A stretch of DNA of 64,000 bases from assembly GCF_013315695.1 (NCBI RefSeq), contig NZ_CP054353.1, one strand, 5' to 3'. Under the pieces are notes generated by a model. That model made no database searches. It was not told the origin of the DNA and worked only from the letters and a program-made list of their open reading frames with translations. The position numbers and the translations under genes were made by a program. Position 1 is the stretch's first letter; the number at the start of each line of letters is the position of its first letter. This DNA comes from Escherichia coli. Lineage in GTDB: Bacteria > Pseudomonadota > Gammaproteobacteria > Enterobacterales > Enterobacteriaceae. This document shows, piece after piece, positions 53,135-53,423 of this stretch.

Positions 53135-53161
53135 TAAGAAAGGCGGGAATAACTTCCCGCC
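53135..53161 (-). terminator. Hairpin terminator downstream of hokA
   Basis: GGCGGGAA…TTCCCGCC followed by a U-rich tract on the minus strand. Confidence 0.5.
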
Positions 53162-53169
53162 GAAGACGC

Positions 53170-53322
53170 TTACTCTTTCAATTTGCAGGCTAAAAACGCC
53201 GCCAGCTCATAACTCCCCTGTTTAATATGCAATTCACACAGTGAATCTCTTATCATCCAGGTGAAAAATAAAAGCGTGAAACAAATCACTATTAAAGAAA
53301 GTAATCTATATTTCTGCGGCAT
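53170..53322 (-). CDS. hokA: Hok-family type I toxin (50 aa); promoter/leader interrupted by IS150 about 75 bp upstream
   Basis: MPQKYRLLSLIVICFTLLFFTWMIRDSLCELHIKQGSYELAAFLACKLKE; in-frame upstream extension to 53382 (mok-like). Confidence 0.8.
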   Translation of the reverse strand: MPQKYRLLSLIVICFTLLFFTWMIRDSLCELHIKQGSYELAAFLACKLKE

Positions 53323-53423
53323 TCCCAGCCTCCTGTGTTGATTTCCAACGAGTAAGAGGCTAACCTTATGGTGTTCAGGCATAGGGTAGCCTCACTTTGT
53401 ACTGACCCCAGAAAGTTGGACAG

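Follow-up and report, generated by a model that had tools for sequence, protein, structure and literature searches.

An Escherichia coli hokA locus split by IS150, probably through a simple insertion independent of the K-12 event at a recurrent target site

Introduction

In the canonical hok circuit, a stable, folded mRNA undergoes 3' processing, translation of hok is coupled to that of the mok frame, and Sok antisense RNA directs decay of the message. Fold-back pairing between the 5' end of the transcript and its 3' fbi element is typical of hok mRNAs. The R1-type plasmid system is a proven post-segregational killer, whereas chromosomal hokA is reported not to be one: IS-free chromosomal hokA is without post-segregational killing, and HokA is toxic on overexpression (summarised in bioRxiv 10.1101/2025.08.07.668861). 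The two systems have diverged in sequence, with HokA having 50 aa and its R1-type counterpart 52 aa.

Pedersen and Gerdes reportedly described the hokA gene of K-12 in 1999 as inactivated by IS150, and parallel IS150 insertions at hokB/sokB are reported from the long-term evolution experiment. The target duplication of IS150 is usually 3 bp. hok/sok loci have been flagged as insertion hot spots for mobile elements (bioRxiv 10.1101/527788), and the targets hit repeatedly in the long-term evolution experiment include hokB/sokB (bioRxiv 10.1101/027086). In three populations of that experiment, 14 of the 68 IS150 events were adjacent deletions that lacked a target duplication (PMC11708052).

Here, we analyse a hokA locus in a 64,000-nt stretch of an E. 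coli genome (the window), which a reading made from the sequence only had described as a K-12-like arrangement with IS150 immediately upstream of hokA. The locus was compared at base resolution with the MG1655 region 3719000-3723500, and its parts were mapped by alignment to the R1-type hok/sok carried by an IncFII plasmid (its Hok matches what we take to be the R1 Hok sequence at 100% identity) and with the Rfam model RF01794.

Results

The locus is a chromosomal hokA/mokA/sokA type I toxin-antitoxin system located between cspA and glyS. The hokA coding sequence (53322..53170, minus strand; 50 codons and TAA) is intact, as the sequence-only reading had proposed, and its product matches the NCBIfam HokA equivalog over positions 1-50 of 50 (130.8 bits; cut-off 89) and Pfam HOK_GEF over profile positions 1-42 of 42 (83.2 bits), so that an ORF for a small hydrophobic Hok/Gef toxin is present. 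The variant encoded here, with Gly36, is the protein of MS 21-1 and SMS-3-5. A mokA-like frame of 70 codons (53382..53170, minus strand; ATG at 53382..53380) overlaps hokA in phase and is preceded by a GAGG Shine-Dalgarno sequence (53393..53390, minus strand) 8-11 nt upstream of its ATG. This frame is complete in the window and truncated in K-12, and the 20-codon extension upstream of hokA is also found in IS-free alleles. The hokA Shine-Dalgarno sequence, AGGAGG (53334..53329, minus strand), lies in the retained 3' half of the leader. Among 21 sampled alleles, 20 carry an intact hokA ORF, which fits either recent insertion or continued constraint.

Downstream of hokA, the previously noticed hairpin was recovered 8 nt past the stop codon: GGCGGGAAGTTATTCCCGCC followed by TTTCTT (53161..53142, minus strand). 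A simple scan yielded 2 terminator-like sites in the hokA region against 0.3 expected from shuffles. Alignment to the R1-type locus identified this hairpin as the homologue of the one that follows the stop codon in R1 hok mRNA, where it is internal to the full-length message. Farther downstream, outside positions 53135-53400, lies the fbi element UCUCAUUGCACCC (53121..53109, minus strand), the 3' partner of the 5' tac.

IS150 is present as a complete element of 1443 bp (53398..54840, minus strand), co-oriented with hokA, with its IRR end facing mokA and its IRL end facing the hokA promoter. Its termini carry the repeats TGTACTG...CAGTACA, and a programmed frameshift joins its two ORFs, insJ (54793..54272, minus strand) and insK (54275..53424, minus strand; IS3-family transposase model, 348 bits); an identical copy is annotated in RefSeq as intact with a programmed frameshift. 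The hokA ATG lies 75 nt from the end of IS150, as had been estimated, whereas the distance to the mokA ATG proved to be 15 nt rather than the 16 given earlier. A simple scan of IS150 found no terminator-like site on the minus strand. On the plus strand, a hairpin near IRR followed by TTTAATTT (53441..53475) matches the terminator pattern, and it would be placed to stop transcription entering from the sokA promoter.

The element is flanked by a direct repeat, CACTT, at 53393..53397 and 54841..54845. The five IS-free alleles compared read gcctCACTTtgattt a single time at the insertion site, with CACTT once, and the window has 1,448 bp more than these alleles. Thus, with CACTT on both sides in the window and once in IS-free alleles, this is a simple IS150 insertion. 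The repeat is 5 bp long; sister alleles at the same site mostly have CTT alone, and the plasmid copies described below have CCA or GTA. PEC411 and 210205630 differ essentially only by CA at the IS150 junction, and CACTT may accordingly represent a 3-bp duplication plus a CA slip in the GTACA-CA-CTT, (AC)n context.

Outside IS150, the window is collinear with the IS-free hokA/sokA loci of E. coli C, O157:H7, UTI89 and VCSW5, in which the leader, mokA, hokA and fbi are conserved, the leader is continuous and sokA has its own terminator. RF01794, which spans the leader between the 5' end of the hok mRNA and the hok ATG (gathering score 59), gave one full-length match of 124 bits on an IS-free allele. 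In the window it was matched in two halves, model positions 1 to ~83 at 54919..54841 (80.6 bits) and ~78-157 at 53397..53320 (41.7 bits, below gathering); a continuous 5' leader is absent, with the 1,443 bp of IS150 lying between the halves. In MG1655, only the 5' half was matched.

The retained 3' half (53397..53323, minus strand) contains the mokA translation-initiation stem-loop and the hokA Shine-Dalgarno sequence. The displaced 5' half (54919..54841, minus strand) begins with the hokA mRNA 5' end, GGGUGCUUGAGA (tac; 54919..54908, minus strand), and reads into IS150 through IRL. The putative -10 element of the hokA promoter, TAGAAT (54931..54926, minus strand), lies 6 nt upstream of the mRNA 5' end and aligns with TATGAT of the R1-type hok promoter. 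Consensus promoter scans of the locus called neither the hokA nor the sokA promoter, and both were assigned only by alignment to the R1-type locus. It had been expected that the hok promoter, the leader and sok would all be truncated. The leader and sokA are indeed interrupted by IS150, but the hok promoter and 5' leader have been displaced to 54841..54931 rather than lost.

Between IS150 and hokA, alignment with the R1-type locus showed a sok-type promoter and an incomplete hok leader. The candidate sokA promoter and 5' stub (53338..53397, plus strand) comprise a -35 element, TTGATT (53338-43), a 17-bp spacer and a -10 element, TAACCT (53361-66), from which transcription would start at ~53373, leaving 25 nt of sokA before IS150. 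The hexamers follow the assignment of the R1 sok promoter in the literature, and they are invariant in the 5 IS-free alleles. The R1-type antisense promoter likewise lies inside mok and has the same 17-bp spacer, ending in GTAAGAGGC, as the hokA locus; the R1-type hok/mok/sok also resembles the window in its Hok/Gef toxin, its overlapping mok and the pairing of its 5' end with a 3' fbi.

The terminator hairpin of sokA is interrupted by IS150 after GCCUCACUU. The 3' part of sokA, now displaced (54841..54876, plus strand), carries the 3' arm of the terminator, GTGGGGC, with its U-tract (54846-54876) and corresponds to the 'sokA pseudogene' annotated in MG1655; the reconstructed intact sokA folds as a hairpin followed by UUUUCUCU. 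Thus, the antisense unit in the window keeps its putative promoter hexamers and 25 nt and has lost its own terminator. In an in silico IS-less reconstruction of the window haplotype, nucleotides 1-6 (tac) pair with the fbi at 53121..53109 with a probability of ~0.998. Both elements are present in the window, set an extra 1.45 kb apart by the insertion.

The window and K-12 share hokA, the cspA and glyS neighbours, IS150 and the separation of promoter and 5' leader from hokA. Alignment with the MG1655 junction, a check set beforehand, showed that the IS150 junctions differ, and the earlier description of a K-12-like arrangement did not hold for the orientation, the hokA-side junction, the 38-bp segment described below or the target duplication. 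In MG1655, the locus (3720448..3722111) consists of hokA, a mokA pseudogene, IS150 and the sokA pseudogene, and the insJ/IRL end of IS150 (3720633..3722075) faces hokA; in the window, the insK/IRR end does so, and the element is inverted. The two copies differ at 16 of 1443 positions (98.9% identity). The mixture of a K-12 locus with non-K-12 markers had seemed odd to the sequence-only reading; the strain is not K-12, and so the oddity disappears.

At the hokA side, the junction reads cgagta/TGTACTGCACC in MG1655 (a slash marks the junction) and catagggtagcctcactt/TGTACTGACCCC (gcctcactt/) in the window, where it lies 38 bp farther from hokA. At the glyS side, the junction reads GGTCAGTACA/aactttgattt in MG1655 and GTGCAGTACA/cactttgattt in the window; its position is shared, just before ACTTTGATT and the preceding base (C in the window, A in K-12). 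CACTT is found on both sides of IS150 in the window, whereas K-12 has no target duplication (gta versus aac). The 38-bp stem-loop (agaggc...tagcct) that K-12 lacks is kept in the window at 53355-53392 and holds the mokA Shine-Dalgarno sequence and ATG, the sokA -10 element with its putative start, and the mokA-start stem-loop. The sokA -35 element is present in both genomes, and the K-12 junction falls inside the 17-bp promoter spacer. With its junction 38 bp farther out, the window thus retains the mokA start and Shine-Dalgarno sequence, the predicted sokA promoter and the first ~25 nt of sokA.

The window is not exceptional among sequenced genomes. Positions 36000-60000 are 100% identical to OZ547117 and MSB1_4I, 99.9% identical to MS 21-1 and 99.2% identical to IAI39 and CE10. 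The same allele, with identical junctions, orientation and IS variant, is present in IAI39 (NC_011750), CE10 (NC_017646), ST648, MS 21-1, MSB1_4I and OZ547117, and at least 60 genomes, IAI39, CE10 and ST648 among them, have the exact glyS-side junction of the window. The window locus is an ordinary, already sequenced IS150-split hokA allele, typical of the IAI39/CE10/ST648 group. In IAI39 and RS571, the stem-loop adjoining the junction is of another sequence variant.

Within the lineage of the window itself, independence from the K-12-type structure is less certain: SMS-3-5 and CS6L are K-12-type, with identical flanks and a near-identical IS.

In a census of 5,426 complete E. coli genomes, hokA was IS-free in 2,831, split by IS150 in the window orientation in 895 (about 900 by the other junction) and split in the K-12 orientation in 1,648 (1,643 by the other junction). 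Among these 1,648 genomes, 96 carry simple insertions with a CTT duplication and no deletion, mostly in ST131. By a rough count, ~40% of the IS150 copies in complete E. coli genomes are located at the hokA site, and hokA is disrupted in 47% of complete E. coli genomes.

We compared 16 IS-bearing hokA loci and distinguished two IS150 variants by 16 diagnostic sites, alpha, represented by K-12, and beta, represented by the window; no mosaics between them were seen in the 16 sampled copies at the 16 sites. Each widely sampled structural class occurs with both variants. The window orientation with a CTT duplication is found in ET201, 210205630 and 2013C-4974 (beta) and in Evo1 (alpha), and that with CACTT in the window, MS 21-1, IAI39, RS571 and PEC411 (beta) and in ST361 (alpha). 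K-12-type loci comprise MG1655, REL606, O157:H16 and E70 (alpha, AACTT) and CS6L, SMS-3-5 and 2D (beta, CACTT; at least 40 genomes). The CTT target is used by IS150 in both orientations.

IS copies of the same variant differ at no more than 2 of 1443 positions, whereas their 980-bp flanks differ by 2-3.8%; the window and PEC411, for instance, differ at 1 position of the IS but at 36 flank positions. Near-identical elements in diverged flanks indicate that the IS copies are far younger than the host haplotypes. The simplest reading is repeated independent insertion of IS150, which suggests a recurrent hot spot at the base of the mok-start stem-loop. Gene conversion of the whole IS, considered as a source of structures carrying both variants, is unlikely, given that the 16 copies are pure at all 16 sites, one of which lies 10 bp from the IS end.

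Two plasmid hok loci were found to carry IS150 with 3-bp duplications in a search for an inverted two-copy intermediate. In the R1-type hok/sok of pMRY15-117_1, a beta copy is inserted at accaCCA/IS150/CCAcgaggcatccctATG, in the orientation of hok and 15 nt ahead of mok, precisely as in the window. In the second plasmid, an alpha copy at gcgcaGTA/IS150/GTAagaggctatcc has a GTA duplication and no deletion, and its site is homologous to the hokA-side junction of K-12 (cgagta/). Both K-12 junctions therefore coincide with sites used for simple IS150 insertions. The K-12 structure might have arisen when IS150 inserted at one base of the stem-loop and an adjacent deletion then extended to the opposite base, or through two IS150 insertions in the same orientation and subsequent recombination between them.

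Two causes of the hot spot are conceivable: the stem-loop as such, or a motif in the sequence, for example GAGGC at a distance of four nucleotides from the IRR end. The motif IRR/NNN-N-GAGGC was present in 4 of 5 IRR flanks (hokA, the two plasmid hok loci and a cas1e insertion), a sample biased by the fact that flanks were found by similarity to the query. A scan of species-representative genomes with the 24-nt IRR tip recovered almost only another, mostly streptococcal element that shares just the tip; only 4 loci matched IS150 itself, and GAGGC stood at the right offset in 2 of 115 flanks. The flanks of the other element are G/C-rich and then T-rich, resembling terminators, a pattern that is not transferable to IS150.

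Discussion

Taken as a whole, the evidence makes it probable that the window holds a hokA locus split by a simple and independent IS150 insertion at a hot spot and surviving as a silenced remnant. Its insertion was probably an event separate from that of K-12 and in the opposite orientation, with a locus less degraded than the K-12 allele. That allele is probably a second product of the same hot spot, in which IS150 replaced the 38-bp stem-loop. A broader proposition, to which we give slightly less than even weight, is that IS150 strongly prefers, in a way not characterised before, the two bases of the conserved mok-start stem-loop, so that hok loci on the chromosome and on plasmids would serve as landing pads in both orientations, the stem-loop sometimes being replaced.

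Among the alternatives, the best supported holds that a single resident IS150 underlies both the window-type and the K-12-type structure. Instead of separate insertions into empty sites, the K-12-type would have formed in place from a window-type insertion, through a local hop or inversion and subsequent loss of the 38-bp stem-loop, more than once. Such a history would account for SMS-3-5, 2D and CS6L, which are K-12-type with the IS variant of the window (1-2 differences) and, on the glyS side, with the same CACTT; CS6L agrees with the window throughout 980 bp of flank, and SMS-3-5 and 2D match the 560-bp hokA-side flank and differ at 15 of 2000 glyS-side positions. It would also agree with the occurrence of each structure with both IS variants, without mosaics in the sample, and with the census, in which no IS-free genome had the exact flank haplotype of the window (best 99.0%). 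However, a simpler route is documented by the plasmid hok IS150 that occupies the K-12 hokA-side site with a GTA duplication, and adjacent deletions by IS150 are common (PMC11708052). Moreover, K-12-type could not have become window-type without recombination, because the 38 bp are missing. Interconversion predicts an intermediate with two inverted IS150 copies, in which IRR adjoins GTAAGAGGCTA on the chromosome; none of the 5,426 genomes contained one, which counts against interconversion as well. We searched, in addition, for a window-orientation allele without the 38-bp stem-loop, and the 15 matches listed, from a search that joins both flanking pieces, were all ordinary alleles. Overall, two states of a single element appear rather unlikely, perhaps a one-in-several prospect, and we retain independent insertion as the preferred reading.

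Considerably less probable is that the locus has been rewired, with mokA/hokA becoming a 3' extension of the IS150 transposase mRNA and the sokA promoter giving rise to a chimeric antisense RNA. This RNA would be ~110 nt long, consist of 25 nt of sokA and of IS150 sequence, end at the internal hairpin of IS150, and still overlap the ribosome-binding site of mokA as well as insK at its 3' end. Read-through from the hokA or IS150 promoter into mokA/hokA is conceivable, because IS150 runs in the direction of hokA and the simple scan detected no terminator-like site on the minus strand within it. The plus-strand hairpin at 53441-53475, the intact sokA -35 and -10 elements and mokA Shine-Dalgarno sequence and ATG, the intact hokA of 20 of the 21 alleles and the recurrence of the geometry on the R1-type plasmid are all compatible with such wiring. 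On the other hand, the proposal is purely structural, the consensus scan did not call the sokA promoter, the intact ORF may just reflect a young insertion, and IS-free chromosomal hokA is reported to be inactive in killing assays (bioRxiv 10.1101/2025.08.07.668861). If it were true, the co-oriented form of the window might leave a working toxin/antisense pair wired to an IS150 transcript.

Finally, the view that the window carries the same IS150 event as K-12, inherited or transferred into a non-K-12 background, finds agreement in the IS family, the intergenic locus and the position of the glyS-side junction (ACA/cactttgat versus ACA/aactttgat in K-12), but is refuted by the base-resolution alignment and practically untenable, given the opposite orientation, the hokA-side junctions 38 bp apart, the direct repeat in the window only, the 16 IS differences, and the mokA start and sokA promoter present in the window and deleted in K-12.

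The simple insertion of an intact IS150 has several consequences. The element lies in the region that the hokA leader shares with the terminator hairpin of sokA, 15 nt ahead of the mokA start codon. It has moved the putative hokA promoter and the leader's first 79 nt, with the 5' tac among them, to a distance of 1.45 kb, from where they read into IS150. sokA has kept its predicted promoter and 25 nt and lost its terminator. Both hokA and mokA are intact, together with the ribosome-binding sites of the two frames, as is the 3' fbi. With the leader and sokA split by IS150, the normal circuit can no longer form as a single unit. Neither one continuous transcript nor a terminated antisense RNA can be made as such, so the locus is most likely silent, and the hokA locus in this genome is most likely a silenced remnant.

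The basic picture, known since the late 1990s, is unchanged by these results, and only the recurrent targeting of hok leaders by IS150 is of some wider interest. For annotation, hokA with IS150 upstream should not be taken as diagnostic of K-12: IS150 alleles of at least four distinct structures occur here, the one in the window being that of IAI39, CE10 and ST648. These alleles can be told apart by orientation and junction, and they could be used as lineage markers. The repeated hits of IS150 at the same few nucleotides of chromosomal and plasmid hok leaders make a case for studying target choice in the IS3 family and, likewise, the frequent inactivation of chromosomal hok loci.

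Probable recurrent insertion of IS150 into hok loci

In the chromosomal hokA locus of the ST131 strain 4224 (L015), IS150 occupies positions 908-2350 and is inserted at the same CTT as in the window-type alleles, in the opposite orientation. This reverse arrangement at the window-type CTT was found in 96 genomes, comprising part of ST131 and its relatives, and in this subset the element is flanked by a clean 3-bp duplication, without deletion. The same target occupied in opposite orientations shows that the site has been struck independently. IS150 was also identified in two plasmid-borne hok/mok loci, both adjoining psiA, in pMRY15-117_1 (L024, positions 518-1960) and in a plasmid of CFIAFB20180511 (L025, positions 518-1960). 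The plasmid insertions lie at positions homologous to both of the chromosomal hokA junction sites: the one with the CCA duplication is located 15 nt upstream of mok, and the one with the GTA duplication falls within the sok promoter spacer.

Within the window IS150, near the IRR, a terminator-like hairpin with a 15-bp stem followed by TTTAATTT is found at 53441-53475 (+), directed inward from the IRR end. This hairpin could block external transcription into IS150 and, in the window allele, could also stop transcripts initiated at the sokA promoter.

A scan of contigs from species-representative genomes for the 24-nt IS150 IRR tip (GTCCAACTTTYTGGGGTCAGTACA) yielded exact matches in numerous assemblies of Streptococcus, Alistipes and Clostridia (loci L028-L147); apart from the tip, the element carrying it in these bacteria had no megablast match to IS150. 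Its flanks are rich in G/C from +6 to +9 and then rich in T from +11 to +28, a pattern which suggests that the element inserts into terminator hairpins.

Small ORF and RNA matches

A 23-codon ORF, MRNAVRKAGITSRRRRLLFQFAG (window 53122-53193, +), starts at the fbi element and overlaps, in antisense orientation, both the 3' end of hokA and the hairpin after the hokA stop codon. Its MG1655 counterpart is ysaE, and in MS 21-1 the counterpart is annotated as 'hypothetical protein'; no match to the ORF was found in Pfam or NCBIfam. On the same strand, the enterobacterial sRNA STnc370 was matched at 46.3 bits, below the gathering score of 54 bits, by a hairpin (55018-55084) that separates the hokA promoter region from the glyS 3' end and is probably just the glyS terminator. 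Elsewhere in the window, the antitoxin RNA rdlD (Rfam RF01813) is matched over its full length five times in tandem, at 88-90 bits per copy and at intervals of ~483 bp, across 31253-33251 (+). This stretch resembles an ldr/rdl type I toxin-antitoxin array of five copies; the corresponding K-12 locus contains a single ldrD/rdlD.

Variant hokA alleles

Among the 21 sampled alleles, hokA is damaged only in that of strain 210205630 (L010), where the stop codon is lost, the frame runs at least 10 codons beyond the normal end and RefSeq labels the gene a pseudogene. The alleles of strains ECO21 (L007) and 4224 share a 1-bp deletion directly upstream of the hokA ATG (ctgcggca-tcccagcc), and in this haplotype the mokA frame is out of register with hokA. 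Judging from the reading frames, such a deletion would alter mok-hok translational coupling even without an IS.
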